Source: a bacterium
GTDB lineage: Bacteria > T1Sed10-126
Length of the DNA: 64,000 nucleotides
Direction of reading: 5' to 3'
Assembly (NCBI GenBank): GCA_003554945.1
Contig: PWHN01000099.1
Span: 9,289-73,288, forward strand
Positions 5,134 through 40,290 of this stretch are shown here, piece after piece. The notes beneath the pieces are model-generated. The model saw only the letters and a program-made list of their open reading frames with translations, did not search any database and was not told where the DNA came from. How positions within the stretch are numbered: position 1 is the first letter of the stretch; each line of letters opens with the position of its first letter. The position numbers and the translations under genes are program-made.

Positions 5134-5478
5134 TTGATGATTCCGGCTCGGAGGCCGGAATGACGTCAAGTTCAAGATGGATTCCGGATCGCGCTCCCTT
5201 CGGTTGCTTGTCCGGAATGACGTCAAGTTCAAGAGCATGAGCGAGATTATGAGCACTTAATGAATTTGAATTAGCTTTCAGCTTTTGGCTTTGAGCTTTA
5301 AGCTGGTGTTTTCCGGCTCGGAGGCCGGAATGACGCGCAATTCATTTCACCCCCCTTTGTTTTTCCTCCCTTCAAGGGGGGAAAAGGAATGGGGGGATGG
5401 TTTTCGGGTCGCTTGTCCGGGGTGACGAAACACGGGATATTTTTTCAGGGCCACACTAAACAGGTATTCTGAAAGAAA
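5134..5478. repeat. Composite intergenic repeat, copy A (REP-like hairpins, TCAAG hexamer run, conserved ~90-nt core, 3' leader)
   Basis: Contains ttccggctcggaggccggaatgacg at 5140-5164 and 5311-5335; the long-hairpin variant ttccggatcgcgctccc..ccggaatgacg; the core tcaagttcaagagcatgagcgagattatgagcacttaatgaatttgaattagctttcagcttttggctttgagctttaagctggtg; and a 3' part acacgggatattttttcagg. It is about 90% identical to 7345-7580. Confidence 0.6.
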
Positions 5479-6004: not shown

Positions 6005-6125
6005 GGAATCAAGGTCAAAGTCACTGGATTCCGGCTCGGAGGCCGGAATGACGAGCGGGCAATCAAGGTCAAGATCAAAATCAAGTTCAAGAACATGAAC
6101 AAGATTATCAGCACTTAATGAATTG
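6005..6125. repeat. Partial copy of the composite intergenic repeat
   Basis: aatcaaggtcaaagtcactgga, hairpin ttccggctcggaggccggaatgacg (6029-6053), and caaggtcaagatcaaaatcaagttcaagaacatgaacaagattatcagcacttaatgaattg. Confidence 0.5.
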
Positions 6126-13812: not shown

Positions 13813-15848
13813 TTCGCGTCTTCGTTTTCCTGCCGTTTTTTCTCTCTTTCTATAATCCCCTTGAGTTCATTGATTTTTTCTGCAACCGAATTATCTTCAG
13901 TTTCTGTTTTTTCTTCCTCTTCTTCGTCAATGGAGTCGGTTTCGGATTTTCCCGCGGATTCCTCTGCGTCTTGTTTTTCGTCCTCATCTTCGGTTTCCAT
14001 TGGCGGCAATTCTTCGCCTGCCATCAGGGCTTCTATTTCTTCCGCGTTAAGGGTCTCACGTTCGGAGAGGATTTCAATCAGGCGATCCAGCTTGTCCTCA
14101 TTTTCAATCATAATTCCCCGGGCGTGTTCAGTTGCTTCATCAATAATTTCCGAAACGGCCTGATCGATTTTCTGTGAAGTTTCCTCACTGTATTCCCGTT
14201 TGTGGCCCATTTCTTCCCCGAGAAAGACGTTGCCATTAGAGTCCTGGAAGGCAACATTGCCAAGAGCGGTGCTCATTCCCCACTGTAGAACCATTTTACG
14301 GGCCATTTTAGTAGCGCGGCGTAGATCGTCCTGGGCGCCGTTGGTGACAGTATCGAGTTTGAGCTGTTCGGCGACCCGCCCGGCCATCAGAACGGCCAGG
14401 CGATCCATCAGATCCTCCCGGGTATACATCTTTTTTTCTTCGAGAGGCAGCTGCTGAGTTGCCCCGAGAGCACGTCCACGGGGGATGATAGTAACTTTAT
14501 GAACGGGATCGGAATTTTCAGCACAGAAGGCGACAATAGTGTGGCCCGACTCATGAGTGGCCATTGTTTTCTTTTCTTCTTCGCTGATTGCCATTTCTTC
14601 CCTCTGCAGGCCCATAATCACTTTATCTCGAGCCTCGTCAAGAATTTCACGAGAAATTTCATCTACATCTTTCTCGGCAGCAAGCAGAGCAGCTTCATTT
14701 AGCAGGTTGCGTAAATCGGCGCCAGAAAATCCAGGAGTACCACTGGCAATTTCGTCCAGATCTACGTCGTCGCCCAGCGGTTTGTTTTCAGCGTGCAGAG
14801 AAAGTATTTGCCGCCGTTCCTTGAGGGTCGGCATTTCGAAGGTTATCTGTCGGTCAAAGCGTCCAGAACGTAGAAGAGCTGGGTCAAGAATGTCTGGGCG
14901 GTTAGTTGCAGCAAGTAGAATAACGCCAGTGTTGGGCTCAAAACCGTCCATCTCGGAGAGCAACTGGTTAAGAGTCTGTTCACGCTCATCGTGTCCGCCA
15001 CCCAGTCCAGCGCCCCGCTTGCGTCCGACGGAGTCAATTTCGTCGATAAATATTATTGCCGGGGCCAGTTCTTTGGCACGTTCAAAAAGATCACGGACGC
15101 GGCTGGCTCCAACACCGACGAACATTTCCATAAAATCTGAGCCTTCGGTAGAGAGAAAAGCAACGCCGGCTTCACCGGCGATTGCCCGTGCAGTAAGTGT
15201 TTTCCCCGTTCCAGGTGGGCCCACCATAAGGATACCTTTTGGAATTTCGCCGCCGAGCCGATCAAATTTTTCCGGTTCTTTAAGGAACTGGATCACCTGT
15301 TGAACTTCGTTTTTCGGCCCGGAATATCCGGCTACATTTTCAAAAGTAACGTCCGGTGTCTCTTCCTGGTAGAGTTTCGCCTTGCTTTCGCCAACTCCCA
15401 TCATCCCACCTCCGCCCATACTTTTCCTGGTTCGGTAAATGAAGTAGAGCCAGATACCGATTATGAGCAGTATGGGGAGAGAGTTTATCAAAAGCATGGT
15501 CCACCAGGTTTCTTCTTCTATCTCCGTTTTGATTTCTACGTCCATTTGACGCAGTTTATTGGTTATTTCTTCTCCCGTGCCGGGAAGGCTTAGCGGCGCA
15601 AGTTCAAACCTTGAATATCCTTCTACGTCGGTAGAATAAATCCCTTTAACATTACGAGCAAATCCCTCGGGCGAGGAGACAATGGTCACTTCGTCTAAGT
15701 TTCCTTCATCAATTTGTCGTTCAAATTCTGACCATGTGGGCTGGTGAATCTGACGGGTATCGGTGACGTAGTCATAGATCACCAGGACCAGTATTACCGA
15801 AGCTATTACAAAAACAATTCTTTTAACGTTGTCGTTCATTATTATCAA
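13809..15848 (-). CDS. ftsH: ATP-dependent zinc metalloprotease FtsH, with an acidic C-terminal tail
   Basis: N-terminal TM helices, Walker [15 protein letters not shown] region, and zinc-binding HESGH. The final ~70 aa are D/E-rich. Confidence 0.9.
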
Positions 15849-16009: not shown

Positions 16010-16250
16010 TACCGAAGCATCTCCCCTCCCCTGGAGGGAGGGGATTAAGGGGAGGGGGGAAAGATCTTTTGACTCCAAATTCAACCCCTTATCCCCCCAT
16101 CCTAACCTTCCCCCTCCAGGGGGGAAGGAATTTGGGAAGCCCTTCGGTAGGTTCTGAACCAGAGGTGAAACCTACTGACGTCATTCCCCCCTTTCTTGTC
16201 CCCCTTGAAGGGGGGAAAGACAAAGGGGGGGGAAAAATGGATTGCGGGTC
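16010..16250. repeat. Cluster of G/C-run palindromic hairpins in the ftsH/HD-GYP spacer
   Basis: ctcccctcccctggagggaggggattaaggggagggggg, ccccctccaggggggaagg, cccccctttcttgtcccccttgaaggggggaaag. There is also a CGTCATT-type element at 16178. Confidence 0.6.
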
Positions 16251-16319: not shown

Positions 16320-17459
16320 TTAAGTATCAACTATTTGGGGACCGGTTTCTGGAGTAATGGCGATTTCAGGTGGGTCAACTAATTTTTCGCCGTCACGGGA
16401 AAGGATACGAACTATTGGCCGGCCCTGGTGGTCATGGTCGCAGACGATGCCGTGTGATCCGTCGTCAAGGTCGACCTCCAGGCCGCGGGGAAAGGGTTCT
16501 ATAAATTCAAGGAAAAGCCGAAGTATTTCAGGGTCGAAGTGCCTGTCTTCAGCTTGCATGGTTTCCATTGTTTTCAATGCCCGTGAAGGCAGCAGGCCGT
16601 CGCGATAGGCGCGGTTAGAAGTCAGGGCAGAGTAGACGTCGCAGACGGCAACTATGCGTCCGTGGAGGTGAATTTGGTTTTCTTTTCGACCGGCAGGATA
16701 TCCCCCGCCGCCGTATTTTTCGTGGTGGTGGAGAGAAGCCTGCCGGACAAGGGGACGGATAATATTTTTTCGTCGTAGCTTTCTCAAAAAATTGGCGCCG
16801 AGCGAAGGATGGCGTTTCATCGCCTCCCACTCGTCGTCGGACAAGGGGCCCTCTTTAGTCAATATATAGCGGGGTATGCGCCACTTACCAATGTCGTGTA
16901 GAAGTGCTCCCAGCCCAAGATCTCTCAACCAGTATTTAAGTGTAAAGGAGGCGGAGGCACCTGTTTGTGAGGTTGCAAAACGATAGAACTTATCCTCGTA
17001 AGCCATAACAAAAAAGAGAGCCAGTCTTGCGACGTCAAGAGAGTGTTTGGCGGTGTAATCGTTATGAGACTTAAGTGAGGTGAAGGCGGCCTGAACAGGA
17101 GAGTTTTTAAGGCTTTCAATCAAACCTTCTACAGAATTATTCAAATTTTCTGCTGAAATTTGGTCAAGTTTTTCCTGACGGAAACCATCGACCGTCTTTT
17201 TCAGTTCGGCGTTAAGTTCCTCTTCGGCGGCGGCCAGTTCCTCGTCGTGGACTAATTCATCTAGATCAGCCGTTCTCTCGTCTTCAATGAAAAGATAACT
17301 CTGCCCCAGGGTTTTTAGCCGTTTCAGATCCCGCCGGGTGAGCGAACGTCCCACCGGCAGACGAAGCTTGTAGAGTGTTCCGGGATGTTCCGATTGAATT
17401 TTTACGTCGACAGCAAGTTCGTCGCCCGGTTGGACCTGGTCCAGAGGAATTCTTCTCAT
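16320..17459 (-). CDS. HD-GYP domain protein (probable c-di-GMP phosphodiesterase/sensor)
   Basis: HDIGK and HHHEKYGGGGYP match the HD-GYP signature (HD...HHE..DGSGYP). The ~170-aa N-terminal region is unassigned. Confidence 0.75.
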   Translation of the reverse strand: MRRIPLDQVQPGDELAVDVKIQSEHPGTLYKLRLPVGRSLTRRDLKRLKTLGQSYLFIEDERTADLDELVHDEELAAAEEELNAELKKTVDGFRQEKLDQISAENLNNSVEGLIESLKNSPVQAAFTSLKSHNDYTAKHSLDVARLALFFVMAYEDKFYRFATSQTGASASFTLKYWLRDLGLGALLHDIGKWRIPRYILTKEGPLSDDEWEAMKRHPSLGANFLRKLRRKNIIRPLVRQASLHHHEKYGGGGYPAGRKENQIHLHGRIVAVCDVYSALTSNRAYRDGLLPSRALKTMETMQAEDRHFDPEILRLFLEFIEPFPRGLEVDLDDGSHGIVCDHDHQGRPIVRILSRDGEKLVDPPEIAITPETGPQIVDT

Positions 17460-18954: not shown

Positions 18955-19118
18955 TCGCTCGTCATTGCGGGCTTGACCCGCAATCCATTTTTACGGGGTT
19001 GATCTATAATCACGTCAAGTTCAACATGGATTCCGGCTCGGAGGCCGGAATGACGTCAAGTTCAAGAACATTAACAAAATTATGAGCACTTAATGAATTT
19101 GAATTAGCTTTCAGCATA
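18955..19118. repeat. REP-like hairpins plus a partial composite-repeat core
   Basis: gtcattgcgggcttgacccgcaatccattttt; ttccggctcggaggccggaatgacg (19031-19055); tcaagttcaagaacattaacaaaattatgagcacttaatgaatttgaattagctttcagc. Confidence 0.55.
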
Positions 19119-27977: not shown

Positions 27978-28472
27978 TTGAGCAAAGAAACGAAACTAAT
28001 AGAAAATTTAGAAGAACTCAATGAAAGACACGAAGTGCTCTTATCTCTACTGGATCGTAAGCTGGAAGCAGTAATTGAACGAGAAATAGATAAGCTTGCT
28101 GAGATTACTGAAGAGGGTAGGGGGCTGGTCAATGATATCAAGAGCTTGCACGAGACGAGGCGCAACCTCTGGGTTGAAGTTGGCGGCGAAGCGGTTATAA
28201 CGGTGGAAGATTTAAGTTCAGAGTTGGACTCGAAGACTGTTGAAAGACTGCAGTCGCTTGCGGAAGATTTACGCCGGAAAAACCGAAAAGTACAGCTCAA
28301 AACTGAACGTATTTCTGAGGTTTTACGCTCAAGAATAGGTGATATAGACCAGGTTTTTGAAACTGTTTTTGAGGTTTTAAACGGTGAGGGACAAGAACAG
28401 ACATACGATGAGAGCGGGCGAAAAAGCGACAAGGAGAACAAACAATCAATGGTTTTTGACGAGGCGGTGTAA
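27978..28472 (+). CDS. flgN: FlgN-like flagellar chaperone (position-based assignment)
   Basis: 164-aa coiled-coil acidic protein directly upstream of flgK. GGGAGG RBS then a TTG start. Confidence 0.5.
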   Translation: MSKETKLIENLEELNERHEVLLSLLDRKLEAVIEREIDKLAEITEEGRGLVNDIKSLHETRRNLWVEVGGEAVITVEDLSSELDSKTVERLQSLAEDLRRKNRKVQLKTERISEVLRSRIGDIDQVFETVFEVLNGEGQEQTYDESGRKSDKENKQSMVFDEAV

Positions 28473-28478
28473 GAGAAA

Positions 28479-31211
28479 ATGGCCGGTTTTCAGGCGATGG
28501 ACAACGCTCTGTCGGGGCTTTTAGCGTCCAGGAGGTCTCTGGACACCACCGCTCACAATATCGCCAATGCGGGTAATAAGAGTTATTCTCGTCAGCGGGC
28601 TGAACTACAGACCAACCGTCCCCAGGTTATTGGCGGGCTCACCATTGGGACCGGCGTTCATGTTGCTGAGATTACCCGGGCGCGCGATCATATGCTTGAT
28701 ACGCGCATGAGACAATCTACATCGACGCTTGATCGATACGATCAGTTAACTACACTTTACGATGATATAGAGACAGCTCTTAACGAACCATCGGACGAAG
28801 GGTTACGGGGAACTTTTGGTGATTTAAATGCCGCCATGCAGGAGCTGGCCAACGAGCCGGAAAACCGAGGCAGCCGGAGGACAGTTATCGGGCAGGCCGA
28901 AACTTTTGCCAGTGGGATAAGAAGGTTTTATCGGACTTTAAATGATATCGGCGGCGGTGAAGGTGAAAACAGTATAAATGTACAGATAGAATCCACTCTG
29001 GATGAGATAAATAATATCGCTGAGAATATTGCTTCGCTTAACAGAGAGATTAATGCCTCTGAGGCCCGCGGGACAAACCCGAACGATTTACTTGACCAAC
29101 GAACCGAATTGACCCGTGAGCTTTCCGAATATATAGACGTTACAGTTCAGGAAACATCGGAACAATTTCGCGTGAACGTTGCAGGTTTCACCCTTGTGCA
29201 GGGCAGTGAGTCCCATGAACTTGACTTTCGGCAGCCCGGCCCCGGAGAACCGCGCAAAATTGTTTATGATGATCATTTGGAAAGTGTTGTCACACCGCAA
29301 AATGGTAAGCTGAAAGCACTTATGGATATGCGGGAGGAAGGCATTCCAGACATTATTGACGATCTTAATGACCTGACTGTACGGCTGGTTGACCGTTTCA
29401 ACGACATCCACCGGAGCGGTTTTGGTATGCAGGAGCAGAGCCGCAACAACTTCTGGTCGGAGCTTCCGACCGCTGATGAGGGGATGTTCAGGTTTGAAGG
29501 TCTGGGAGACGTTGGTGGTGATTATCCGGAACGTAAGGCCGGTCACGTCGATGCACCGGACGAGCTTCTGTTTATTGACGGAGAGTCCGATGACGCCCGA
29601 GAAATGCCCCGTAATTTTGACGGTGACAGCGGGATATCAGATAACCCGGACGGAACGCTTTTAATTAACGGCCATTCAATTAATTACAACATGAAAGAGG
29701 ATTCGCTGGACGACATAATTGACCGCATTAATGAGTCGCCCAACCACGCACAGGCCTACTGGAGCGCCGATGAACGGCTGGTAATCACCGGAACACAGGA
29801 AAATGACTATCGAATTGACGAAATGCGTGATAACGGGCTTTTACTCGACAAAACCAATATTCTTTCCGTCGGCGGAAGCAATCGAAGCAGTTCGAGGTCC
29901 GTGGACGACGTGGAAGAAGACATTGCCTCTGAACTTGAAAGTTTTTTTGATGACGTGGATTATGCCGATGGGACGCTGGAGTTTTCTTCCCAACGTGAAG
30001 AAGACTTTACAATAAATTACGACGCTGAAGAGGATTCTCTGGTGGAATTGGTCGATAGAATCAACAACGCAAGCGAAGCGGCAGATTCAGACGTGGTTGC
30101 CTCGGTTACTAGTAACGACGAACTACGGTTGTTTACTGCTCATGAAGAAGAGCTTGATGAAGACGAAGGTCCTATTTATGGTGCTGGAGAAGAGATAGAC
30201 CTGCATGTTTCAAATGTTCATGACGTTCAACGGGGTGATACTGTTCGAGTCTCTGATAACGATGGAGCCGAAGAAGCTCGTGTTATTCATGTTAATCGTG
30301 ACGACGGTATCATTACGGTAGATGAACTTGACGAAGAGTATGATACTGGCGAAGACGCAGTAGTCCATATCAACAATAAACAGGACGATTTCAGGGTTAA
30401 TGACACGTCTAGTTTTGGTATTGATGATACGGACGTCGACGAGCATGATGACGAAGATTGGTATGGAATATATTTAACAGATGACGATGATTCCAGCAAT
30501 TTTACTGAAGGCGACACGGTGATAGTGGCGAATGACACTGAAACAGCGGGTGATGAGATCCGTGGCCGGGTGATGGAAGTCGACGACGAGGAGGGCATAG
30601 TCTACATTGATGAGGAGGTCGACGCAGCAGATATAGATGAGGGCGCAACAATAAGAAATACCAGGGATGAACATGAGACCCGTAATTTGTTGGCGGGCCT
30701 GGGAATGGACCGGCTTTATCGAGACGACAGCAGCTACGAGTATGCGATCACCGGTCAGTCGCAGCGGCCGCCCCTGGCCGATCAGGCGGCGGCTCTTGAG
30801 GTGGACAGCCTGATTGATGCCAATCCGGATCTGATTGCCGCTTCTGGCGGTGACGATATTGATAACACGGGAATTGCCGACACGATGAAAGGTGAAGGCG
30901 ACGGTTCAGTGATGAACGAACTGTCCAATCTTCACGATAAAAATGTAATGGCCCAGGGTGAAAAATCAATGGACGATCACCTGAGTGAAATGGCCGCTGA
31001 GATTGGCAGCGACTCCTCTCTGGTTCGCCGCGAAAAACGTGCATCTGAACAATTGGTTCATCAGCTTGAGGACCAGATACAGAGCGTCTCCGGCGTTAGC
31101 CTGGACGAAGAAATGAGCAAATTGATACGCGAACAGCAGGGGTTCCAGGCGGCCAGCCGGGTGATTGGGGCAGTGCGTGATATGTCTAATGAAATTATGC
31201 AGTTGATTTAA
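28479..31211 (+). CDS. flgK: Flagellar hook-associated protein 1 (FlgK) with a ~500-aa acidic insert
   Basis: N-terminal rod/hook signature MAGFQAMDNALSGLLASRRSLDTTAHNIANAGNKSYSRQRAEL, and a C-terminal conserved helix (QGFQAASRVIGAVRDMSNEIMQLI). Confidence 0.8.
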   Translation: MAGFQAMDNALSGLLASRRSLDTTAHNIANAGNKSYSRQRAELQTNRPQVIGGLTIGTGVHVAEITRARDHMLDTRMRQSTSTLDRYDQLTTLYDDIETALNEPSDEGLRGTFGDLNAAMQELANEPENRGSRRTVIGQAETFASGIRRFYRTLNDIGGGEGENSINVQIESTLDEINNIAENIASLNREINASEARGTNPNDLLDQRTELTRELSEYIDVTVQETSEQFRVNVAGFTLVQGSESHELDFRQPGPGEPRKIVYDDHLESVVTPQNGKLKALMDMREEGIPDIIDDLNDLTVRLVDRFNDIHRSGFGMQEQSRNNFWSELPTADEGMFRFEGLGDVGGDYPERKAGHVDAPDELLFIDGESDDAREMPRNFDGDSGISDNPDGTLLINGHSINYNMKEDSLDDIIDRINESPNHAQAYWSADERLVITGTQENDYRIDEMRDNGLLLDKTNILSVGGSNRSSSRSVDDVEEDIASELESFFDDVDYADGTLEFSSQREEDFTINYDAEEDSLVELVDRINNASEAADSDVVASVTSNDELRLFTAHEEELDEDEGPIYGAGEEIDLHVSNVHDVQRGDTVRVSDNDGAEEARVIHVNRDDGIITVDELDEEYDTGEDAVVHINNKQDDFRVNDTSSFGIDDTDVDEHDDEDWYGIYLTDDDDSSNFTEGDTVIVANDTETAGDEIRGRVMEVDDEEGIVYIDEEVDAADIDEGATIRNTRDEHETRNLLAGLGMDRLYRDDSSYEYAITGQSQRPPLADQAAALEVDSLIDANPDLIAASGGDDIDNTGIADTMKGEGDGSVMNELSNLHDKNVMAQGEKSMDDHLSEMAAEIGSDSSLVRREKRASEQLVHQLEDQIQSVSGVSLDEEMSKLIREQQGFQAASRVIGAVRDMSNEIMQLI

Positions 31212-31237
31212 TCATGCCAAAAAAGGAGGTGGTGTAA

Positions 31238-32899
31238 ATGGGGCGAGTCTCGTTCATAACTCAGTTTGAGCAGCCAAAAAGAAACCTGATGTCAAATACT
31301 AACGATATCCAGCAGACAATGGAACAAATATCGACCGGAAAACAGATTAGCAGACCGTCGGATAGCCCACCTGATATGGTGCGGCTGTTTGAACACCACA
31401 ACGAACAGGGAAGAATTGGCCAGTATAAAGACAATATAACCTCAGCCCGAAATGAACTTGAGACAGCCGAGGGTTCTCTGGGTGAAGTGACTAATCTGTT
31501 GCAACGCGTGCGAGAGCTTTCAGTCCAGGCGGCTAACGATTCTTTAAGTGACCGGGACAGGGAATTGATTAGTGCTGAAGTCGACGAGCGAATTGAGGAG
31601 TTGGTGGATGTTGCTAACAATCGACTGGCCGGGCAGTTCTTGTTTGGAGGCACAGAAACGGAAGACCTCGATCAGTTGTTCACTGTTGAAAGAGATGGCC
31701 AGGATCAAATCCAGGAAGTCCAATTTAACGGCGATTTCAACCCCACGAACAAACAAATTGGTGACGGGGAATTCATTCCCTCCAATTTAATTGGTAGCGA
31801 AATATTTCAGGCAACCAACGAGAGTGCCCGCGGAGATTTTGAAACAGTAGCTTTTGATACTGACCCCGATGTAGATGAATACGATTTTGCCGAAGACCCG
31901 TTAAAGGATCATAACAATATCCCCAAAAGCAAAGGTTACTTTCAGCTCAACGATAGGCAGGTTTACTACGATACAAACGAAGATACTATCATTGATGTCG
32001 CGGAACGTATTAACGACATGGGAATCACGGTTGAGTCAATGTTTGAAGAGGTGCGTGGGGTTCACGAAGATGACGTGGTAGACTTGGAAGATAACGAAAT
32101 AACTATCGCCCAGGATGACCTGCCGGTGGATGTTGAAGTCGGGGATAGGATTAGAATTAAGGATGACGACGGCGACCAGCAAATATTAAGGATAGAAGAG
32201 CTGGAGTTTGATGACGATGAAGATGAGGTTACTATTAGGTTAGACGATGATGTTGATGACCCGGACGATGTTCAAAGCGTTCAATTCATTGATTCGGCCG
32301 GGATTGAACACTCCCCGACTGAAGCGCGGGAACTTGATGAAGACAACCATGACGTCCAGTTCAAGCTCAAGTCTCGAACCCCTCATGAAATATATCTGCG
32401 AGATTTTGACCGCAATCCGGCCAACGGTGACGGCGAGCAGGGGCTGCTGAATGATCTTGGAATAATCGGCCAGAACGGCGAACCCCCTGAACCTCGGGAG
32501 AGACAAAATTATCCTGTTGAATACCACGACGGTGCTTTCCGGGAAGGAAAATCAATTTTTGATACCTTAATTGATTTCAGAAATACCCTCCAGGGTGAGC
32601 CGCCGGCAGACGTTGAAAATGAGGCGGAGGGTTTCCAGCAGTCTATTGAAGAGATTCAACTGGGGGTCGAAAACATACTGGTTCACCGCAGTATTGCCGG
32701 TGCTCGTGTTAACAGATTGGATTCGGCTGAAAACCGGATTGAAGACCGGGAATTGCATACGCAGGAATTAATATCACAGCTTGAGGACGCTGATCTGGCG
32801 GAAGTAATAACTGAACACGAGCGTTTGCGGACAGTTCAGGAGGCTTCGCTTCAAATGTCCTCAAATATTATGCAACTGAGCCTGGCAAATTTTATCTAA
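31238..32899 (+). CDS. flgL: Flagellar hook-associated protein 3 (FlgL) with an acidic insert
   Basis: TGKQISRPSDSPPDMV, and LQRVRELSVQAANDSLSDRDRELISAEVDERIEEL, which is the flagellin-type N-domain. C-terminal LRTVQEASLQMSSNIMQLSLANFI. Confidence 0.75.
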   Translation: MGRVSFITQFEQPKRNLMSNTNDIQQTMEQISTGKQISRPSDSPPDMVRLFEHHNEQGRIGQYKDNITSARNELETAEGSLGEVTNLLQRVRELSVQAANDSLSDRDRELISAEVDERIEELVDVANNRLAGQFLFGGTETEDLDQLFTVERDGQDQIQEVQFNGDFNPTNKQIGDGEFIPSNLIGSEIFQATNESARGDFETVAFDTDPDVDEYDFAEDPLKDHNNIPKSKGYFQLNDRQVYYDTNEDTIIDVAERINDMGITVESMFEEVRGVHEDDVVDLEDNEITIAQDDLPVDVEVGDRIRIKDDDGDQQILRIEELEFDDDEDEVTIRLDDDVDDPDDVQSVQFIDSAGIEHSPTEARELDEDNHDVQFKLKSRTPHEIYLRDFDRNPANGDGEQGLLNDLGIIGQNGEPPEPRERQNYPVEYHDGAFREGKSIFDTLIDFRNTLQGEPPADVENEAEGFQQSIEEIQLGVENILVHRSIAGARVNRLDSAENRIEDRELHTQELISQLEDADLAEVITEHERLRTVQEASLQMSSNIMQLSLANFI

Positions 32900-33092
32900 C
32901 AATTTTATCTAAATTATTCAGACTGACAAAATCAGCTAAAGGGGGGAGACAAAAGGGGAGAAAAGATGGCTTGCCGGGTCAAGCAGCGTCATGCCGGACT
33001 TGATCCGGTATCGAAAGTGATGAAATCGTTGGAAAGTCTGAGTTGCATTTTATCACTATTTTGTATAAACTTATATTAACAGCTTAACAGAT

Positions 33093-33590
33093 ATGCGGAA
33101 AGGGTTTGATCAAACCGTGAAAATTAAGTCGAAGCCCTACGGCGAAATTGAAATTGACAGGGATAAAATAGTTACAGTCCGAGGCGGACTGTTTGGGTTT
33201 GAAGACCAGGAGGAATACGTAATCATAGGAAGAGAGAGCGAACAGCCCTTTGAGTGGTTACAGGCGGTAAACGATCCCGACCTGGCTTTTGTTGTAGTGC
33301 CTCCTAACCTCATACGACCGGATTACGAGCTTTCTATTCTGCCGGAAGATCTCAAGCAGATAGAAGCGGATTCGACCGACGATTTGATGCTTTATTCGAT
33401 CGTGGTTGTGCCACAAAATCCGGACGCGATGACAATTAACTTTCGCGGACCGGTAATAGTAAATCAGGAAAATTTTCTGGCCAAACAGGTGATTAACCAG
33501 GTAGATGAATATACGGTGCGTCATCGGGTTCTTGATGAGCTGGAAGCTTCCGGTCGGCAGGGACTGGTCGCGAAGGGCGGGAGCGAGTAA
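33093..33590 (+). CDS. fliW: Flagellar assembly factor FliW
   Basis: [49 protein letters not shown] is typical of FliW. Confidence 0.85.
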
Positions 33591-33841
33591 TGCTTGTTCT
33601 TACCCGAAAAGTTGACGAACGCGTTATGATTGGCGACGACATTGAGATTATGATTGTCGATCAGGACGGCGATCAGGTCAAACTGGGAATTGAAGCACCG
33701 CGTGAGATACCGATTCATCGCCGCGAGGTTTATGAAGAAATCCAGAAAGAAAACATCGAAGCAGCCCGCGCAAGCGGGGAGGAGACCCGTTCTGTGGCAG
33801 AGTTTCTTAAACAACAAAGTGAAGAAAAAAAAGAATCTTAA
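33590..33841 (+). CDS. csrA: Carbon storage regulator CsrA
   Basis: [51 protein letters not shown]. Its start overlaps the fliW stop. Confidence 0.9.
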
Positions 33842-33849
33842 AAAAATAT

Positions 33850-33878
33850 TTGACAAACGGCGATTGATGTCCGATAAT
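33850..33878 (+). promoter_or_regulatory. Sigma70-like promoter (TTGACA-N17-GATAAT) immediately after the csrA stop
   Basis: TTGACA at 33850-33855, a 17-nt spacer, and GATAAT at 33873-33878. Confidence 0.45.
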
Positions 33879-33884
33879 TAGATT

Positions 33885-34021
33885 GACATAAGAAAAAGTC
33901 AGCAAGGATGCTGGCTGGAGGACAATTTTTTCACATGGAGGTTTGATAATATTACACTTGTAAACTTAGCCTATTCTTGGTGTGCAGTCTCGGACTGCGC
34001 AGGCAGGGGTAGGTTTTTTTT
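33885..34021 (+). ncRNA. Candidate small RNA with multiple GGA motifs (possible CsrA-titrating sRNA)
   Basis: Bounded by the promoter at 33850-33878 and a T8 run at 34013-34020 preceded by GC-rich structure. Contains the hairpin gtcagcaAGGAtgctggc with AGGA in its loop, plus ctGGAGGAcaa, catGGAGgtt and caGGcaGGGGtaGG. Confidence 0.3.
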
Positions 34022-34185
34022 GTGCACCATGTTGTATACGCGCTTTTTTTGGGGCTCATGAGAGTTAAAGTTGGATTAGTAGTATTTGTAGTAACTCTGG
34101 ATTGATCTTTTTTCTTTTTTGCTCTACGGGGTAAACGGTTCGACGTCATTTGACGGCCGGACTGAAGCTCTTTGACATTCAAATA

Positions 34186-34210
34186 TAGTCGATAGGTTGA
34201 GACAGCCTGG
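34186..34210. repeat. Upstream arm of the inverted repeat bracketing flagellin gene 1 (partner at 35315-35340)
   Basis: tagtcgataggttgagacagcctgg versus downstream cccgggctgtctcgcctatcggctat. About 22 of 25 positions are complementary, with one indel. Confidence 0.6.
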
Positions 34211-34350
34211 ACGCCGGTATGGTGGTTGTATCCTCCGCCGCTTTAGTGGGGAACAACTGCTGTTACCGGACTGTTTTACCACGTTTTTTTTACATCATTA
34301 GTGCTTGACTGCACAGGACTATCAGTACAATTTAGCACAATCTTAGCACA

Positions 34351-34390
34351 ATTCGAATCAAGGACGATTCGATCTTAACTCCAGGAGGGA
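34351..34390 (+). promoter_or_regulatory. 5'UTR CsrA-binding-type hairpin (tcgaatc-AAGGAC-gattcga) plus SD ccaggaggga for flagellin 1
   Basis: Perfect 7-bp stem with a GGA-containing loop at 34353-34372. A second GGA lies in the SD at 34381-34390. The same module occurs before flagellins 3 and 4. Confidence 0.6.
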
Positions 34391-34401
34391 GTGTTCTACC
34401 G

Positions 34402-35295
34402 ATGGGTGGTATGTTTAGAATTAACACTAACGTTCAGGCTACATTTGCACAACGACAGTTACACAGAAGTTCTGGTGATCTTGACCAGGCGCAGGAGCGT
34501 CTGTCCAGTGGTTTACGTATTAACGTGGCTGCTGATGACGCCGCTGGACTGGCCATTGCTGAGAAATTGAGCATGGCCGGCCGTGGTCTTGACCAGGCGC
34601 AGTCTAACGCTCAGGACGGTATATCAGTACTTCAGACCGCCGAGGGTGGTCTTGAGTCTATTGGTGACGACCTGCAGCGGATGCGTGAGCTGGCTGTTCA
34701 GGCAGCTAACGACAGCTTGACTGACGATGACCGTGAACTGATCCAGACTGAGATTTCTCAGCTGGTAGATGAGGTTGACCGAACCGCCTCCACGGTTCAG
34801 TTTAACCAGCGTCAACTGCTTACCAATCAATTTGGTGAAGTTGACGAGGCTGGACGAGCTACTGCTGGAGAGGCATCACTGACTTTCCACATTGGCGCTA
34901 ACCGTGACGAGACAATCACGGTGGCCATGGGAGACGGTCAAGCTATTCAGACGGCTACCTCGCAAGCGCTTGGTATTCGTGTCGACGACGCCCCGATAAG
35001 CGTTGAATCACGTGAGGGTGCTGAATCGGCGATCGAAACGGTTACCCAGGCGATTAACGAAGTTTCGGAAACTCGCGCTAACATTGGTGCCGTTCAGAAC
35101 CGTCTCGAGGGAGCTGTTGACTTCCTGCAGATCCAGGGAGAGAACACCGAGGCTTCCGAGAGCGCGATTCGTGACGCTGACATTGCCGCGGAAGCGGTCA
35201 ACCAGACCCGAGCTAACATCTTGACTCAAGCCGGTACTTCCGTGCTTGCACAGGCCCAGCAGACGCCGCAGATGGCGCTGCAGTTGCTCGGTTAA
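34402..35295 (+). CDS. fliC: Flagellin (paralog 1, 297 aa)
   Basis: MFRINTNVQATFAQRQL...LSSGLRINVAADDAAGLAIAEKL and a C-terminal ANILTQAGTSVLAQAQQTPQMALQLLG. Confidence 0.9.
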   Translation: MGGMFRINTNVQATFAQRQLHRSSGDLDQAQERLSSGLRINVAADDAAGLAIAEKLSMAGRGLDQAQSNAQDGISVLQTAEGGLESIGDDLQRMRELAVQAANDSLTDDDRELIQTEISQLVDEVDRTASTVQFNQRQLLTNQFGEVDEAGRATAGEASLTFHIGANRDETITVAMGDGQAIQTATSQALGIRVDDAPISVESREGAESAIETVTQAINEVSETRANIGAVQNRLEGAVDFLQIQGENTEASESAIRDADIAAEAVNQTRANILTQAGTSVLAQAQQTPQMALQLLG

Positions 35296-35314
35296 CTTTT
35301 TTAGTTCTTTTTTA

Positions 35315-35340
35315 CCCGGGCTGTCTCGCCTATCGGCTAT
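35315..35340. repeat. Downstream arm of the flagellin-1 inverted repeat
   Basis: Reverse complement atagccgataggcgagacagcccggg matches 34186-34210. Confidence 0.6.
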
Positions 35341-35402
35341 CTTTTATTTTTACGAAAAACTGCTGGTGCGGTTTATGCCACAGCGGATGGGAATGAGATG
35401 AA

Positions 35403-35792
35403 ATGAATCATGGGACCGGAGCGATTGAGGGACCCGAGTTTCAAAATAGTTTGATCCAAAATAATAATTTGAACAGAGCCGAAACTACGGCTGAAACAGA
35501 CCGACCGGATAACTCTGCCGGAGCAGCGGTCGAGCGACCGGTTGCTGAGACTACCGTAAGTGTAGAGGATCAGGCAGTTGCCGAAGCTGTTGAAGAACTC
35601 GATCAGGCGGCCGCCGAAGCCTCTTTTTACGGGATTGATTTTAATATCTTGCCCGATGACAACCTGGTCCAGGCACGGTTGATCAGCCAGGAGAATGAGG
35701 AGTTGATTCGCGCTATCCCGCCTGATGAACTGCTGGAAATAAGGCAGCGCGTTGACGCTTTCATAGGACTGTTGTTTGATGTGACAAGATAA
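35403..35792 (+). CDS. flaG: FlaG-like flagellar protein
   Basis: C-terminal IRAIPPDELLEIRQRVDAFIGLLFDV matches the FlaG IPPEELL signature. Lies between flagellin genes. Confidence 0.6.
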   Translation: MNHGTGAIEGPEFQNSLIQNNNLNRAETTAETDRPDNSAGAAVERPVAETTVSVEDQAVAEAVEELDQAAAEASFYGIDFNILPDDNLVQARLISQENEELIRAIPPDELLEIRQRVDAFIGLLFDVTR

Positions 35793-35861
35793 CAAAACTT
35801 CATCGCCGCCCGGGTCACGGAAGACCTGGTTAAAAATCTCCAGGAGGGAGCTGAAGCCGCT

Positions 35862-36752
35862 ATGGGCGGTTTATTTCGTGTTAACACCAATACGCAGGCG
35901 ACCTTTATTGAGCGCCAGCTCTATCGCAATACCCGGCAACTGGATCGGGCGCAGGAACGTCTGGCCAGTGGCTTCAGGATTAATCGGGCAGCTGACGATG
36001 CAGCCGGGCTGGCTATTTCTGAAAAGTTGCGCATGGCCGAGCGCGGCCTGAGTCAGGCTCAGGCCAACGCTCAGGACGGGATCTCACTCCTTCAGACTGC
36101 CGAAGGTGGTATGGAGACAGTTACAGAAGATTTACAGAGAATTCGTGAGCTCAGCTTACAAGCGGCCAACGACAGTCTTACCGACTCCGATCGTGAATTA
36201 ATTCAGGCTGAAATAAATCAACTTGTCCAGGAGATAGACCGTACGGCCTCTACCGTGCAGTTTAACCAGCGTCAGCTGCTTAAAAATGATTTTGGAACTG
36301 TTGATGCTGGCGGTCGGGTCCAGGATGACGGCCGAGCTTCCCTTGCTTTCCACATTGGTGCCAACCGTAACGAAATTATCAGGGTTACTACAAACGAATT
36401 AGGAACTACTACCTCACGTTCTTTGAACCTGAGAACCGAGGATACTTCGCTAAGTATCAGTACACGCGAGGCCGCCGAGTCGGCAATCGAAGTGGCTACC
36501 CGGGCAATTAACCAGGTCTCCCGGCAGAGGGCTAATATTGGAGCACTTCAGAATCGACTCGAGGGTGCGGTCGATTTTCTCCAAATTCAAGAAGAAAATA
36601 CTCAACGTGCCGACAGCCGCATACGTGACGCTGACATCGCCCGGGAGACGATGAATATGACCCGCTCTCAAATTCTTGTCCAGGCCGGCACCTCGCTGCT
36701 TGCCCAGGCCCAGGAACTGCCCCGCACCATCCTCCAAATACTGGGCATCTAA
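35862..36752 (+). CDS. fliC: Flagellin (paralog 2, 296 aa)
   Basis: MGGLFRVNTNTQATFIERQL...LASGFRINRAADDAAGLAISEKL and a C-terminal QILVQAGTSLLAQAQELPRTILQILGI. Confidence 0.9.
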   Translation: MGGLFRVNTNTQATFIERQLYRNTRQLDRAQERLASGFRINRAADDAAGLAISEKLRMAERGLSQAQANAQDGISLLQTAEGGMETVTEDLQRIRELSLQAANDSLTDSDRELIQAEINQLVQEIDRTASTVQFNQRQLLKNDFGTVDAGGRVQDDGRASLAFHIGANRNEIIRVTTNELGTTTSRSLNLRTEDTSLSISTREAAESAIEVATRAINQVSRQRANIGALQNRLEGAVDFLQIQEENTQRADSRIRDADIARETMNMTRSQILVQAGTSLLAQAQELPRTILQILGI

Positions 36753-37034
36753 CTTTTTTCTTTTTTCTAAAGCTATCTTTGAAGTTTTTAGATTCCAGTT
36801 CCAGGTTTTAACTCGCAACACGCAACACGCAATAAGGTTTATGGTTTTGAAGTTTGATTTCAACTTTAAACTAAAAACTATAAACTGGAAACTAATTTTA
36901 TCCCGCAACTACACTTTTACACTTTCCCACTTTCTAACTTTCCCACTAACAAATTTCTCCACTCAAGATTTTTCCTCCGTAGTCGATAATTAAGAACAGG
37001 ATTATTACGAGACGACAGGGATCTTTGACATGTG

Positions 37035-37063
37035 AATACAGCCGGCGAACGGGGACCTGGCCC
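37035..37063. repeat. Upstream arm of the inverted repeat bracketing flagellin gene 3 (partner at 38061-38090)
   Basis: aatacagccggcgaacggggacctggccc. The downstream reverse complement is aatacagccggcgaacggagacctggcccg (29 of 30). Confidence 0.75.
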
Positions 37064-37093
37064 TTTTGTAGCATCAGTACGACCGTTGAACTT

Positions 37094-37132
37094 CGAATCA
37101 AGGATGATTCGATTCTAAAATTCCAGGAGGGA
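37094..37132 (+). promoter_or_regulatory. 5'UTR hairpin tcgaatc-AAGGAT-gattcga plus SD ccaggaggga for flagellin 3
   Basis: Same module as at 34351-34390, with one loop substitution. Confidence 0.6.
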
Positions 37133-37143
37133 GTGTTCTAATT

Positions 37144-38043
37144 ATGGGAGGTCTATTTCGAATCAACACAAACGTGCAGGCCACGTTCTCTCAACGTCAA
37201 CTGCACAGAAGTTCCGCTGATCTTGACAGAGCACAGGAGCGTTTGTCCAGCGGGTTAAGGATTAACGTCGCCGCAGACGATGCCGCAGGACTGGCTATTG
37301 CTGAGAAGTTAGAAATGGCTGGCCGCGGTTTAAGCCAAGCCCAGGACAACGCTCAGGACGGTATATCCGTCCTGCAAACCGCTGAGGGTGGTCTTGAATC
37401 CATTGGAGACGACCTGCAGCGGATGCGTGAGCTGGCCGTGCAAGCTGCTAACGACAGTTTGACTGACGACGATCGTGAACTGATCCAGACTGAGATTTCT
37501 CAGCTGGTCGATGAGATCGATCGCACAGCTTCCACGGTGCAGTTCAACCAGCGTCAGCTTTTAACCAACGAGTTTACAACCGTTGACGAATCTGGCGAGG
37601 CCCAAGAAGGTGAAGGCCCGGGTTCGCTTTCTTTTCACATTGGAGCGAACCGTGACGAGGTCATTACCGTGGACGTGGAAGACGACATTCAGACCGCAAC
37701 TGCTACAGCACTCGGTATTCGCGACGCTGACACGGGAGAACCCGTGAGCGTTGAAACCCGAGAACTTGCCGAATCCACGATCCAAACCGTTTCCGAGGCG
37801 ATTAACGAGGTCTCGGAAAGTCGGGCCAACATCGGTGCCGTTCAGAATCGGCTCGAAGGTGCCGTCGATTTTCTCCAGATTCAGTATGAGAATACCGAGG
37901 CATCGGAGAGCGCGATTCGTGACGCTGACATTGCCGAAGAAGCTGTTAACCAGACAAGGGCCAACATTTTGACCCAGGCCGGTACTTCCGTTCTTGGTCA
38001 GGCACAGCAAACGCCACAGATGGCCCTGCAGCTTCTGCAGTAG
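37144..38043 (+). CDS. fliC: Flagellin (paralog 3, 299 aa)
   Basis: MGGLFRINTNVQATFSQRQL...; N- and C-termini near-identical to paralog 1. Confidence 0.9.
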   Translation: MGGLFRINTNVQATFSQRQLHRSSADLDRAQERLSSGLRINVAADDAAGLAIAEKLEMAGRGLSQAQDNAQDGISVLQTAEGGLESIGDDLQRMRELAVQAANDSLTDDDRELIQTEISQLVDEIDRTASTVQFNQRQLLTNEFTTVDESGEAQEGEGPGSLSFHIGANRDEVITVDVEDDIQTATATALGIRDADTGEPVSVETRELAESTIQTVSEAINEVSESRANIGAVQNRLEGAVDFLQIQYENTEASESAIRDADIAEEAVNQTRANILTQAGTSVLGQAQQTPQMALQLLQ

Positions 38044-38060
38044 TTTTTTACTGACCTTTC

Positions 38061-38090
38061 CGGGCCAGGTCTCCGTTCGCCGGCTGTATT
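38061..38090. repeat. Downstream arm of the flagellin-3 inverted repeat
   Basis: cgggccaggtctccgttcgccggctgtatt, 18 nt after the stop codon. Confidence 0.75.
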
Positions 38091-38125
38091 TTTGAGCTGA
38101 TTTTCTCCAAGGGAGTTTTATTTCC

Positions 38126-39088
38126 ATGAAAGTAACTTTTTCTTCTGAACAGCCGCTTGAAATTGAAGCGCCTGACCCCGAGCAGAAGCTGGGAGATTAT
38201 ATCGATTTTGTAAATAAAAAATTAAGCGATGTAAACCGGTTTATTTTTTCTGCCGAGGTCGACGGCGAACAAATTACAGAAGAACGCTGCCGGCAGAAAT
38301 GTGATTCGTTTGAAGAATTAAAGCTGGAAGCCCGCTCTTTCGAAGAGATGACCATCGACACCATTGGCCGCTTAGGAGCTTATTGCCAGGAATACCTGGC
38401 TAAACTTCCACAGGTCATTGACGAGTGGAAAAAAAAGAGCGACGAAGAGAAAAATGCATTGCGTCGTCAAGTGCTTGAAGCTATAAATCTGGCCGGTAAG
38501 GTTCTGGACTCGATTGATGATTTTCTTGACGTCGCAGTGGAAGAACATGACACAATAAAAAGCAGAACAGAAAAATTGGCGGGGCAGTTTCGTGAGGCAG
38601 GGAGAGAAGAATTGAAGTCCTTGCTAACAGAGCAGGGGAGCGAATATTTTTCTGAATTATTTGACCACCTCAGAGCTGTACTGGATTACGTTGACGGGCA
38701 AAAAGATGCTGAGTCAGACCAGCTTTCACGTCTGGGCCGCCAGCTCGATGAACTGCACGAAGAACTAACCAACCTTATTAATAAATTCCAGGGCGGGGAT
38801 ATTGCCGACGCTTACGACCAATTGACTGATCGAGCTACTGAAATAGATGAATTGCTTGCTGTTATCGGCGGGTTGGACAAGACTGGTTTCCTCAAACGTA
38901 ATTTCACACCGGAAACTCAGGACGAATTAAGTCAGGCCCATACAGAACTTCACCGCGGTCTCACCGAATTACTTCAGGCCGTGGAGGAGCGCGATCCGAT
39001 AATGGTCTGCGACATACTTGAGTATGAGTTTTTACCCTACCTTGAATCTCTCCAAAAACTCTTTGGCAGCGTCGACGAAGCGGAATAG
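38126..39088 (+). CDS. Hypothetical acidic coiled-coil protein embedded in the flagellin array
   Basis: 320-aa ORF with no recognisable motif. It sits between flagellins 3 and 4 and lacks the CsrA-type leader. Confidence 0.5.
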   Translation: MKVTFSSEQPLEIEAPDPEQKLGDYIDFVNKKLSDVNRFIFSAEVDGEQITEERCRQKCDSFEELKLEARSFEEMTIDTIGRLGAYCQEYLAKLPQVIDEWKKKSDEEKNALRRQVLEAINLAGKVLDSIDDFLDVAVEEHDTIKSRTEKLAGQFREAGREELKSLLTEQGSEYFSELFDHLRAVLDYVDGQKDAESDQLSRLGRQLDELHEELTNLINKFQGGDIADAYDQLTDRATEIDELLAVIGGLDKTGFLKRNFTPETQDELSQAHTELHRGLTELLQAVEERDPIMVCDILEYEFLPYLESLQKLFGSVDEAE

Positions 39089-39122: not shown

Positions 39123-39172
39123 ATAACTCAAAGCTAAGTACTATACCTCAATAAAACTATGTTCTCTGACAA

Positions 39173-39208
39173 TTAAATACGGCCGGTGTGACGTTTCCTC
39201 TCCCGGAG
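39173..39208. repeat. Upstream arm of the inverted repeat bracketing flagellin gene 4 (partner at 40298-40331)
   Basis: aaatacggccggtg is a perfect 14-nt core. An imperfect extension CCTCTCCCGGAG matches CCTCTCGCCGGTG in the partner arm. Confidence 0.6.
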
Positions 39209-39321: not shown

Positions 39322-40290
39322 ATGTCAGAACTTTTTCGTATTCAGAATAACATTGCCGCTCAGTTTGCACAGCGGCAACTTAACCGCTCTGATTCTACAT
39401 TAAACGAAGCCCAGGAAAGGCTTTCCAGTGGTTACAGAATTAACACCGCCTCGGACGATGCTGCCGGTCTTGCTATTTCGGAACGACTGCGAATGGCAGA
39501 CCGAGGCCTCGGTCAGGCGGAGAGAAACGCACAGGACGCTATTTCAGTTCTGCAGACCGCCGAAGGAGGCCTGGAAACTATTGGCGATAACCTTCAGCGG
39601 ATGCGCGAACTGGCCGTTCAAGCGGCTAACGACAGCCTGACCTGGGATGACCGGAGGTTGATCCAGACTGAGGTTGATCAGCTGGTCGAGGAGATCGATC
39701 GTAGTGCCTCGAGCGTGCAGTTCAACCAGCGACAGCTTCTTAAGAACGACTTTGGAACTGTCGACGCGTCTGGTGAAACTGAAGAAGGTTCGGGATCATT
39801 AGTCTTTCACGTCGGGGCTAACCGGGATGAAGTCATGGAGATTACAACCGATGAACTGCGAACCATGACTTCGGTTAACCTTGGTCTCCGACTCACGGAA
39901 GACCGGAATGAGATCATTGAATATCCCGGCGGTACTCTCTTGTATGGCCCCGACGATCAGTATTATGCTCTCAGTCTTTACCGGGACTCAGCCGGTAATT
40001 TGGATCGTAATGCTGCTGAATCCGCTATCGAGCGGATTACCCGGGCCATTGACCAGGTTTCAGACTCGAGAGCACGAATTGGTGCTGTTCAGAACCGTGT
40101 TGAGTCTACTATTGACTTCCTGCAACTTCAGCAGGAGAACACGCAGGCTTCTGAAAGCAGAATTCGTGACGCTGATTTGGCGGAAGAGTCCGTCCGACGG
40201 ACTCAAGCCGACATCCTGATGCAGGCCGGTACTTCCGTGCTTGCCCAGGCTAATCAGCAGCCTCAACTGGCATTACAGTTGTTGGCTTAG
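39322..40290 (+). CDS. fliC: Flagellin (paralog 4, 322 aa, divergent with a central insert)
   Basis: LSSGYRINTASDDAAGLAISERL and a C-terminal ADILMQAGTSVLAQANQQPQLALQLLA. Confidence 0.85.
   Translation: MSELFRIQNNIAAQFAQRQLNRSDSTLNEAQERLSSGYRINTASDDAAGLAISERLRMADRGLGQAERNAQDAISVLQTAEGGLETIGDNLQRMRELAVQAANDSLTWDDRRLIQTEVDQLVEEIDRSASSVQFNQRQLLKNDFGTVDASGETEEGSGSLVFHVGANRDEVMEITTDELRTMTSVNLGLRLTEDRNEIIEYPGGTLLYGPDDQYYALSLYRDSAGNLDRNAAESAIERITRAIDQVSDSRARIGAVQNRVESTIDFLQLQQENTQASESRIRDADLAEESVRRTQADILMQAGTSVLAQANQQPQLALQLLA

Follow-up and report, generated by a model that had tools for sequence, protein, structure and literature searches.

Is CsrA in a FliW-controlled bacterium also held in check by an RNA of its own? 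Gammaproteobacteria use sponge sRNAs against CsrA, and lineages with the ancestral FliW system are said to be without them (PMC7652899, PMC13407953). A 2020 review stated that the joint action of FliW and sRNA routes "remains to be determined" (PMC7652899), and a paper of May 2026 still lists FliW organisms without such sRNAs (PMC13407953). The question is raised by a flagellar locus within a 64-kb stretch of metagenome-assembled DNA (the whole stretch analysed, hereafter the window), in which the spacer downstream of csrA had been predicted to encode a GGA-rich RNA of the CsrB/RsmY/RsmZ type. That prediction held that no such sRNA is generally known in FliW–CsrA organisms, and the papers up to May 2026 agree (PMC7652899, PMC13407953). 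Our analysis upholds a non-coding, structured RNA gene with predicted CsrA-type sites beside csrA in a FliW organism, and gives up both the multi-site sponge and the strict tie to csrA.

The late-flagellar locus in the window runs flgN, flgK, flgL, fliW, csrA, spacer, flagellin, flaG and three further flagellin genes (Table 1). It has what defines a FliW-type Csr system, as fliW adjoins csrA and the CsrA protein is extended at its C-terminus and carries Asn55, along with R44 (N55 and R44 were read from the translation). N55 is the FliW-contact residue of CsrA, and a C-terminal extension together with Asn55 is typical of FliW-controlled CsrA (PMC13407953). The listed fliW reading frame (165 aa, ATG at 33093) is 8–9 residues longer than those of relatives (156–157 aa), and translation probably starts at the GTG near 33117. 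The product of the first flagellin gene is 60–87% identical to flagellins at the equivalent position in relatives, whose flagellins match Pfam Flagellin_N and Flagellin_C; in the window itself, direct Pfam matches were obtained for the paralogue at 39322–40290. A 320-aa ORF amid the flagellin genes (38126–39088) is without a firm Pfam match, and its counterparts in two loci of a sister clade (L020 and L021) show weak TP0873_N and DUF8042 matches.

The source lineage is uncultured, and identical or related contigs are all metagenome-assembled. With RuvB as the marker, the same unclassified clade appears at 66–79% identity and Bacteroidota come next at ~65%, while FliW identity is 56–92% within the clade and then falls sharply to about 42–46% (Spirochaetota-like, Tissierellia). 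FlgK (910 aa) and FlgL (553 aa), encoded at 28479–32899, contain long, very acidic (D/E-rich) insertions, which fit halophily and the soda-lake or hypersaline origin suggested by the isolate names of related MAGs.

The spacer between the csrA stop codon (33839–33841) and the first flagellin gene measures 560 nt (33842–34401), somewhat more than the 520 bp first given. It had been described as free of ORFs, and indeed no ORF is common to the copies of the RNA, which hence have no conserved coding sequence. A coding reading was rejected, as a minus-strand 76-aa ORF and a plus-strand 34-aa ORF are kept only in a 92%-identical relative. The near-consensus sigma-70 promoter described 9 nt past the csrA stop is there: it matches the consensus at 11 of 12 positions, is the best sigma-70-like site within 32800–38200 (5.4 kb), and is kept in all 12 sequences discussed below. 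A sigma-28 reading of the same promoter (TCCGATAA resembles GCCGATAA) was rejected for the window clade because all that relatives retain at N17 from TTGACA is nAnAnT, and a TAAA −35 box is missing. At the other end, the terminator hairpin consists of 13 plus 9 bp and is imperfect (33968–34014); it was missed by a simple terminator scan and found by folding. The T8 tract after the structured region was correctly noted, although it begins one base later than stated, and a second T7 reported near 34045 is present (34043–34049) but not conserved in relatives. The 139-nt stretch folds with a minimum free energy (MFE) of −45.8 kcal/mol, compared with −31.1 ± 3.4 in shuffles (z = −4.4), and none of 200 shuffles does as well.

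Table 1 Features of the csrA–flagellin region in the window and of the sister-clade copies.
Feature	Position	Strand	Remarks
flgN	27978-28472		
flgK	28479-31211		
flgL	31238-32899		
fliW, partner-switch protein antagonising CsrA	33093..33590	+	Pfam FliW, E = 1e-35
csrA, 83 aa, FliW-type	33590..33841	+	Pfam CsrA, E = 2e-25
Sigma-70-type promoter TTGACA-N17-GATAAT	33850..33878	+	TTGACA 33850-33855, GATAAT 33873-33878
Predicted non-coding RNA, ~136 nt	33885..34021	+	5' end placed from the -10 box, 3' end from the U-run
Hairpin 1, A-GUCAGCA / AGGA / UGCUGGC-U	33897..33916	+	8 bp including one G-U; AGGA loop
Predicted CsrA-type site 1, CAAGGAUG	33903-33910	+	In the loop of hairpin 1; GGA = 33906-33908
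GGAGGA outside the conserved element	33917..33922	+	L003-L018 lack it or have it altered; paired in the MFE fold
Single-stranded conserved block CACAUGGAGGUUUGAUAA	33932..33949	+	Unpaired in the RNAalifold consensus
Predicted CsrA-type site 2, CAUGGAGG	33934-33941	+	Inside block 33932-33949
Intrinsic terminator, extended hairpin + U8	33968..34021	+	U8 = 34014-34021
Conserved box GGGGCTCATGAGA / GGGGCYCATGAGA	34051..34063	+	3' of the terminator; single occurrence in the window
Flagellin promoter-like motif TTGACA-N10-GTCGAT	34172..34193	+	Conserved in relatives
Flagellin leader, hairpin with CAAGGACG in loop	34353..34390	+	GGAGG Shine-Dalgarno 22 nt downstream
Flagellin gene 1 of four	34402..35295	+	
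flaG	35403-35792		
Three other flagellin genes	begin 35862, 37144, 39322		
Sister-clade copy A	L021 3775-3886; L020 3818-3935		Past csrA, 5' of flaG
Sister-clade copy B	L021 5718-5834; L020 5835-5954		80-100 nt 5' of flagellin gene

Loci of relatives were gathered through FliW together with a DNA pattern scan. The unit of promoter, hairpin, site 2 and terminator is found in 12 distinct sequences (the window, L003–L008, L011, L013 and L016–L018), which come from uncultured, unclassified MAGs with FliW proteins 58–92% identical. All 12 have TTGAC(A/T), exactly 17 nt, and an nAnAnT hexamer (A2 and T6 kept) at a fixed distance 5' of the hairpin. The consensus fold, calculated from a MAFFT alignment, comprises the 8-bp hairpin and the 13-bp base of the terminator, with the stretch between them unpaired. 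In the structure-blind alignment, 94% of cells are paired, compared with 33–53% when the partner is slid by 1–3 columns; eight pairs in total carry changes in both partners, and not one of the observed measures was attained in 500 shuffles. Double changes affect three of the eight pairs of hairpin 1, so the AGGA-loop hairpin that had been pointed out is both present and covarying, with a stem of 8 bp (one of them G–U) rather than 7. Compensatory changes are seen at five of the 13 consensus pairs of the terminator, and a U7–U8 run follows it in all 16 copies known from the two clades. Comparison among relatives, which the original prediction envisaged as a covariance search, finds the unit conserved in the 12 sequences and, with a covariance model, at two sister-clade loci with two copies each. 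The spacer that flanks the unit is otherwise mostly unalignable, save for two short motifs, the box at 34051–34063 and the flagellin promoter-like motif. With its own promoter, an intrinsic terminator, no ORF and a covarying structure, the sequence has the features of an independent sRNA gene, and on this footing the predicted RNA gene is genuine, conserved and previously undescribed.

The first of the two short motifs, the box, lies 30–100 nt past the terminator of the csrA-proximal RNA copy at every locus and is absent after copy B of the sister clade, where the box has the form GCCCGTGAGAGAG (L020 ~3983, L021 ~3931). It could serve to bind a protein, belong to a promoter or mark the 5' end of an RNA.

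We built two covariance models, the first from the 12 copies and the second with the sister-clade copies included. The window RNA scores 119 and 105 bits with them and is the sole copy in the window. A pattern scan of metagenomes for extra copies returned one contig, identical to L005, and the lineage therefore appears to be rare. Outgroup loci (L022–L024, Spirochaetota-like, FliW about 42% identical) gave no model match up to E = 10. A weak model match at 5299–5364 of the window was rejected as a further copy, since it is a dispersed, REP-like hairpin that has nothing to do with the locus. This palindromic hairpin, TTCCGGCTCGGAGGCCGGAA, has GGA in its loop and occurs in four identical copies (5141–5160, 5311–5330, 6029–6048 and 19031–19050) as an intergenic repeat, often with ATGACG after it; it is the best spurious model match (19 bits). 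Elsewhere in the window, the gap between an ORF ending at 15848 and one starting at 16320 contains, at 16033–16117, a pair of 9-bp hairpins rich in G/C, each with a CTGGA loop: tcccctccc-CTGGA-gggagggga and, on the minus strand, ccttccccc-CTGGA-gggggaagg.

Outside the terminator, invariance across the 16 copies of two clades is confined to GCA.GGA.GC, which sits in the hairpin loop, and to CA.GGA.G of the single-stranded block, where the window's site 2 pattern CA.GGA(G)G is invariant or nearly so. Both invariant octamers are instances of CANGGANG, the high-affinity CsrA/RsmE motif (PMC4894983). The GGA of site 1 is unpaired in 16 of 16 MFE folds, the consensus fold leaves site 2 unpaired, and the two sites are 23–31 nt apart across all copies (31 nt in the window). 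Theirs is the only pair of CANGGANG octamers 10–45 nt apart on both strands of the window (128 kb; expected 0.24 ± 0.49). At both predicted sites the motif is present, exposed and conserved, as would be expected of high-affinity CsrA sites.

The remaining GGA motifs fare differently. At least four had been claimed and five are counted in 137 nt, but only two sites are conserved, the others being paired, within the terminator stem or absent from relatives. Dinucleotide shuffles give 2.9 ± 1.2 (p ~0.085), and GGA enrichment was accordingly rejected as evidence. The GGAGGA that had been taken as part of the element is neither conserved in relatives nor free in the MFE fold, and the "GGGG-AGG run", also listed as a GGA motif, forms the 3' side of the stem of the terminator. 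Exposure of the GGA sites in the predicted fold therefore holds for site 1, in its loop, and for the single-stranded site 2, and not for the other GGAs. Additionally, the block past site 2 (GGAGGU-N1-3-GAUAA) is conserved beyond what a CsrA site requires, which hints at an additional partner.

The same two-site arrangement is found in front of the flagellin genes. In four of four flagellin leaders of the window, a 7–9-bp hairpin presents CA(A/C)GGA(C/A/U)G in its loop and a GGAGG Shine-Dalgarno sequence follows 22–26 nt downstream; the layout of the first leader recurs at 35819, 37102 and 39283 for the other three genes. CsrA represses targets of the hag/flaA type through this combination of a GGA in a hairpin loop and a Shine-Dalgarno site (PMC13443453, PMC4894983). 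When the whole window was scanned for a loop GGA plus a second site, the RNA, the four flagellin leaders and a few weak, chance-level matches came up. With filters off, three of the window's flagellin leaders and those of relatives score 11–18 bits with the RNA model, which places flagellin leaders among the few next-best matches, beside the 19-bit REP-like hairpin and other chance-level matches. The RNA has two full CANGGANG octamers, whereas each flagellin leader has one and a weaker Shine-Dalgarno site (CCAGGAGG). Judged as a flagellin-leader-type CsrA target, the unit has the loop GGA site and lacks the translated gene, as neither a start codon nor an ORF was found 3' of site 2. It is leader-like and yet no leader, because its Shine-Dalgarno-like GGAGG comes without a start codon or conserved ORF and the terminator follows 20–30 nt later. 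What we observe directly is that the gene exists, is conserved and structured, has these invariant sites and parallels the flagellin leaders.

The promoters of the RNA and of flagellin also differ. The motif (T)CTTTGACA-N10-GYCGRT lies 5' of three flagellin genes (34172–34193, 37025–37046 and 39166–39187), has four matches where 0.98 are expected, and lacks a sigma-70 −10 box at N17. This lineage may use it as a late-flagellar, sigma-28-like promoter with an unusual −35, where we infer the choice of sigma factor. The sigma-70-type promoter of the RNA is of another kind, so that in the window clade the RNA and flagellin look like separate transcription units.

We propose a decoy role for the RNA because the invariant bases outside its terminator spell only CsrA-type octamers. 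Specifically, the ~136-nt sRNA would mimic a flagellin leader and take up one CsrA dimer per molecule in competition with the four flagellin mRNAs, a reading that we consider evenly poised between right and wrong. That the RNA is transcribed, binds CsrA and acts in the cell by titration is our inference. The RNA would be transcribed from its own housekeeping-type promoter and end at the strong intrinsic terminator, and it would probably form the tail of the csrA message as well. With site 1 held in a stable hairpin loop and site 2 single-stranded 23–31 nt downstream, its geometry would be that of a flagellin leader clamped by one CsrA dimer at an upstream hairpin site and a Shine-Dalgarno site, here without a coding sequence. 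One dimer would bridge sites 1 and 2 and thereby be withheld from the flagellin mRNAs. The RNA would in this way set a CsrA threshold to be exceeded before flagellin translation is repressed, as an RNA antagonist added to the Hag–FliW–CsrA partner switch and working alongside it. It probably soaks up CsrA, then, in a lineage thought to be controlled by FliW only. A multi-site sponge is disfavoured, and we prefer a two-site leader mimic since one molecule could hold one CsrA dimer.

Several points weigh on this proposal. The paralogous copies in the sister clade would support it by analogy, as Csr/Rsm sRNA families often show such copies. Against it, two sites per molecule mean that titration requires abundant RNA, the GGA content is not enriched, conservation extends past site 2, and copy B of the sister clade is placed in front of flagellin. 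Furthermore, FliW of B. subtilis inhibits CsrA allosterically at near-equimolar ratios (PMC7652899), and the need for an RNA antagonist is therefore not obvious.

The sister subclade (L020 and L021; FliW 59–64% identical over 87% of its length) has two paralogous copies per locus, which the second model scores at 55–77 bits. Copy B is preceded in L021 by TTGACA-N17-GATAGT (L021 5630–5658) and in L020 by a perfect sigma-28 consensus, TAAAGTTT-N11-GCCGATGT (L020 5752–5781), and no sigma-70-type promoter is recognisable between copy B and the flagellin start codon at either locus. Copy B may be an RNA derived from a 5' leader or a part of the flagellin 5' leader, and in the sister clade the unit may act as a 5' leader or an attenuator. 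Weak model matches (8–14 bits) also occur just 5' of flgL (L021 96–162, L019 547–651, L020 614–681), which suggests that sister-clade flgL leaders too carry the hairpin-GGA plus GGAGG arrangement.

These positions bear on an unlikely alternative, in which the unit is the upstream module of a long flagellar 5' leader, or an attenuator, that strengthens or gates CsrA control in cis instead of titrating the protein. Read-through transcripts would then hold four CsrA sites, and the extra high-affinity pair would recruit or tether CsrA to the flagellin or flaG message. Such a role is favoured by the sister-clade copies, which lie 80–150 nt 5' of flaG or flagellin with no sigma-70-like promoter between, and by L020 copy B, which comes after TAAAGTTT-N11-GCCGATGT; the distance from unit to flagellin is also fairly constant (220–380 nt), whereas that to csrA varies from 9 to 380 nt. 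However, flagellin in the window clade has a conserved promoter-like motif of its own, placed 3' of the terminator and 5' of the leader, and two more flagellin genes share this motif without a unit in front of them. The terminator, moreover, is long and covarying and has its U7–U8 run in 16 of 16 copies, and the consensus fold contains no conserved antiterminator, the best found by eye being a 5-bp AGGUU/AGCCU helix that is far too weak.

The position of the unit relative to csrA raises a second alternative, namely that it is chiefly the 3' UTR and terminator of fliW–csrA, through which CsrA autoregulates the stability or synthesis of its own mRNA, with the internal promoter secondary. The unit's terminator is the first past csrA at every locus, and in the window the promoter starts only 9 nt past the stop codon. 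As no terminator lies between csrA and the unit, fliW–csrA read-through transcripts should end with the unit. The RNA had been placed next to csrA, which is true of the window; in L016 and L018, however, it lies 380 nt and 270 nt past csrA, with unrelated sequence and no terminator between, and the second copy of the sister clade is near flagellin and unlinked to csrA. The promoter has moved with the RNA in L016 and L018, which makes the unit more than a terminator of csrA: TTGACA-N17-nAnAnT stays fixed relative to the hairpin in all 12 sequences, even 270–380 nt from csrA. In L019, which belongs to the clade, an aminotransferase gene lies 130 nt past csrA, and 4.9 kb of this locus hold no model match at E < 0.1, the one match being a marginal 14 bits (E = 0.13). 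We regard the 3' UTR explanation as quite unlikely.

A third alternative takes the conserved block CACAUGGAGGUUUGAUAA as the seed of a base-pairing sRNA with C/U-rich targets, for which CsrA would be at most a chaperone. CsrA is reportedly the chaperone of a base-pairing sRNA in B. subtilis, where SR1 pairs with ahrC. Consistent with this idea, the block is unpaired and conserved over 17–18 nt in the window clade, more than CsrA needs, and the GAUAA past site 2 is conserved likewise. Across both clades, however, only CA.GGA.G is fixed within the block, and no convincing complementary target was found within the 64-kb window, where the best non-self duplex (−20 kcal/mol) is with the opposite strand within CDS-span coordinates; base pairing as the main function is thus improbable. 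That the unit is a chance promoter-plus-terminator or a functionless, decaying remnant of a flagellin leader, as its unenriched GGA content and leader-like architecture might suggest, is hardly credible given covariation-backed conservation at only about 58–67% FliW identity, the sister-clade paralogues and the invariant octamers.

How does the proposed leader-mimic decoy relate to RNAs already known to antagonise CsrA? CsrB/Rsm sRNAs carry roughly 5–22 GGA sites. We took membership of the CsrB/RsmZ family to mean a score at the gathering threshold (Rfam CL00106), at least five exposed GGA motifs and a GacA/UvrY box, TGTAAG-N6-CTTACA. The window RNA fails on each count. No Rfam family matches at the gathering threshold in the whole window, or at E ≤ 10 on 33500–34500, and the best score, for CsrB, is 15.4 bits against a gathering score of 71 and covers the GGA hairpin only; the GacA/UvrY box is absent throughout the window, and what lies 5' of the RNA promoter is the csrA coding region. 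With two conserved sites, GGA content at p ~0.085, a CsrB score of 15 bits vs 71 and no GacA/UvrY box, the GGA-rich sponge of the CsrB/RsmY/RsmZ type that had been proposed is not borne out. Like CsrB/CsrC and RsmX/Y/Z of Gammaproteobacteria, the RNA is non-coding, has GGA in a loop or single strand, ends in a Rho-independent terminator and occurs in paralogous copies, and it would presumably sequester CsrA by competition; unlike them, it has two conserved sites and no GacA/UvrY box, and shares neither sequence nor structure homology. Its host also differs from theirs in having FliW and an extended CsrA, features reported to be anti-correlated with CsrB/Rsm-type sRNAs (PMC7652899).

The nearest precedent is the flaA leader of Campylobacter jejuni, which has two GGA loops 21 nt apart and titrates CsrA alongside FliW (Dugar et al. 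2016, PMC4894983). Both belong to a FliW-type Csr system, have two CANGGANG-type GGA sites (~21 nt apart vs 23–31 nt) and are linked to flagellin. Titration is reported for the flaA leader, whereas for the window RNA it is proposed from sequence. The flaA leader is part of a translated mRNA for which titration is a second role, whereas the window RNA would stand alone as a terminated, non-coding transcript with its own promoter and no start codon past site 2. The hag leader of Bacillus subtilis contains two stem-loop GGA sites (Yakhnin 2007, cited in PMC7652899 and PMC13443453). The window resembles it in the order fliW–csrA–flagellin and in pairing a loop GGA with a Shine-Dalgarno-like GGAGG at a distance that one dimer could bridge. 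In contrast, the hag leader is a target and no separate gene, while the window lineage has true leaders plus an extra copy without an ORF. The RNA shares with McaS and other few-site sRNAs a short length and a small number of GGA sites. McaS is an E. coli RNA found in Enterobacteria that binds and titrates CsrA and has a dual function, with Hfq-dependent base pairing; neither homology to it nor a link to Hfq is evident for the window RNA. For Geobacter there are only unverified computational predictions of CsrB-like RNAs (PMC11934962).

The locus offers a concrete candidate for an RNA of this kind: placed between csrA and the main targets of CsrA, it has the conserved architecture of a flagellin leader without the ORF, and is equipped with a promoter and a terminator of its own. 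What is new relative to the precedent is a stand-alone non-coding gene in place of a segment of translated flaA mRNA. It may represent the first dedicated RNA antagonist of FliW-type CsrA, a small family of leader-mimic decoys, present once or twice at each flagellar locus, that together with FliW fix the level of free CsrA, although we put this broader claim slightly below an even chance. Recombinant 83-aa protein and 136-nt RNA suffice for work in vitro, which matters as the host is uncultured. If true, the proposal would answer, within one organism, the question that the 2020 review raised about FliW and sRNAs. If the RNA does bind CsrA, decoy RNAs would have arisen outside Proteobacteria and independently of the CsrB/Rsm families, which would suggest that such sRNAs originate from the leaders of their targets, and a tunable threshold would be added to the Hag–FliW–CsrA homeostat.
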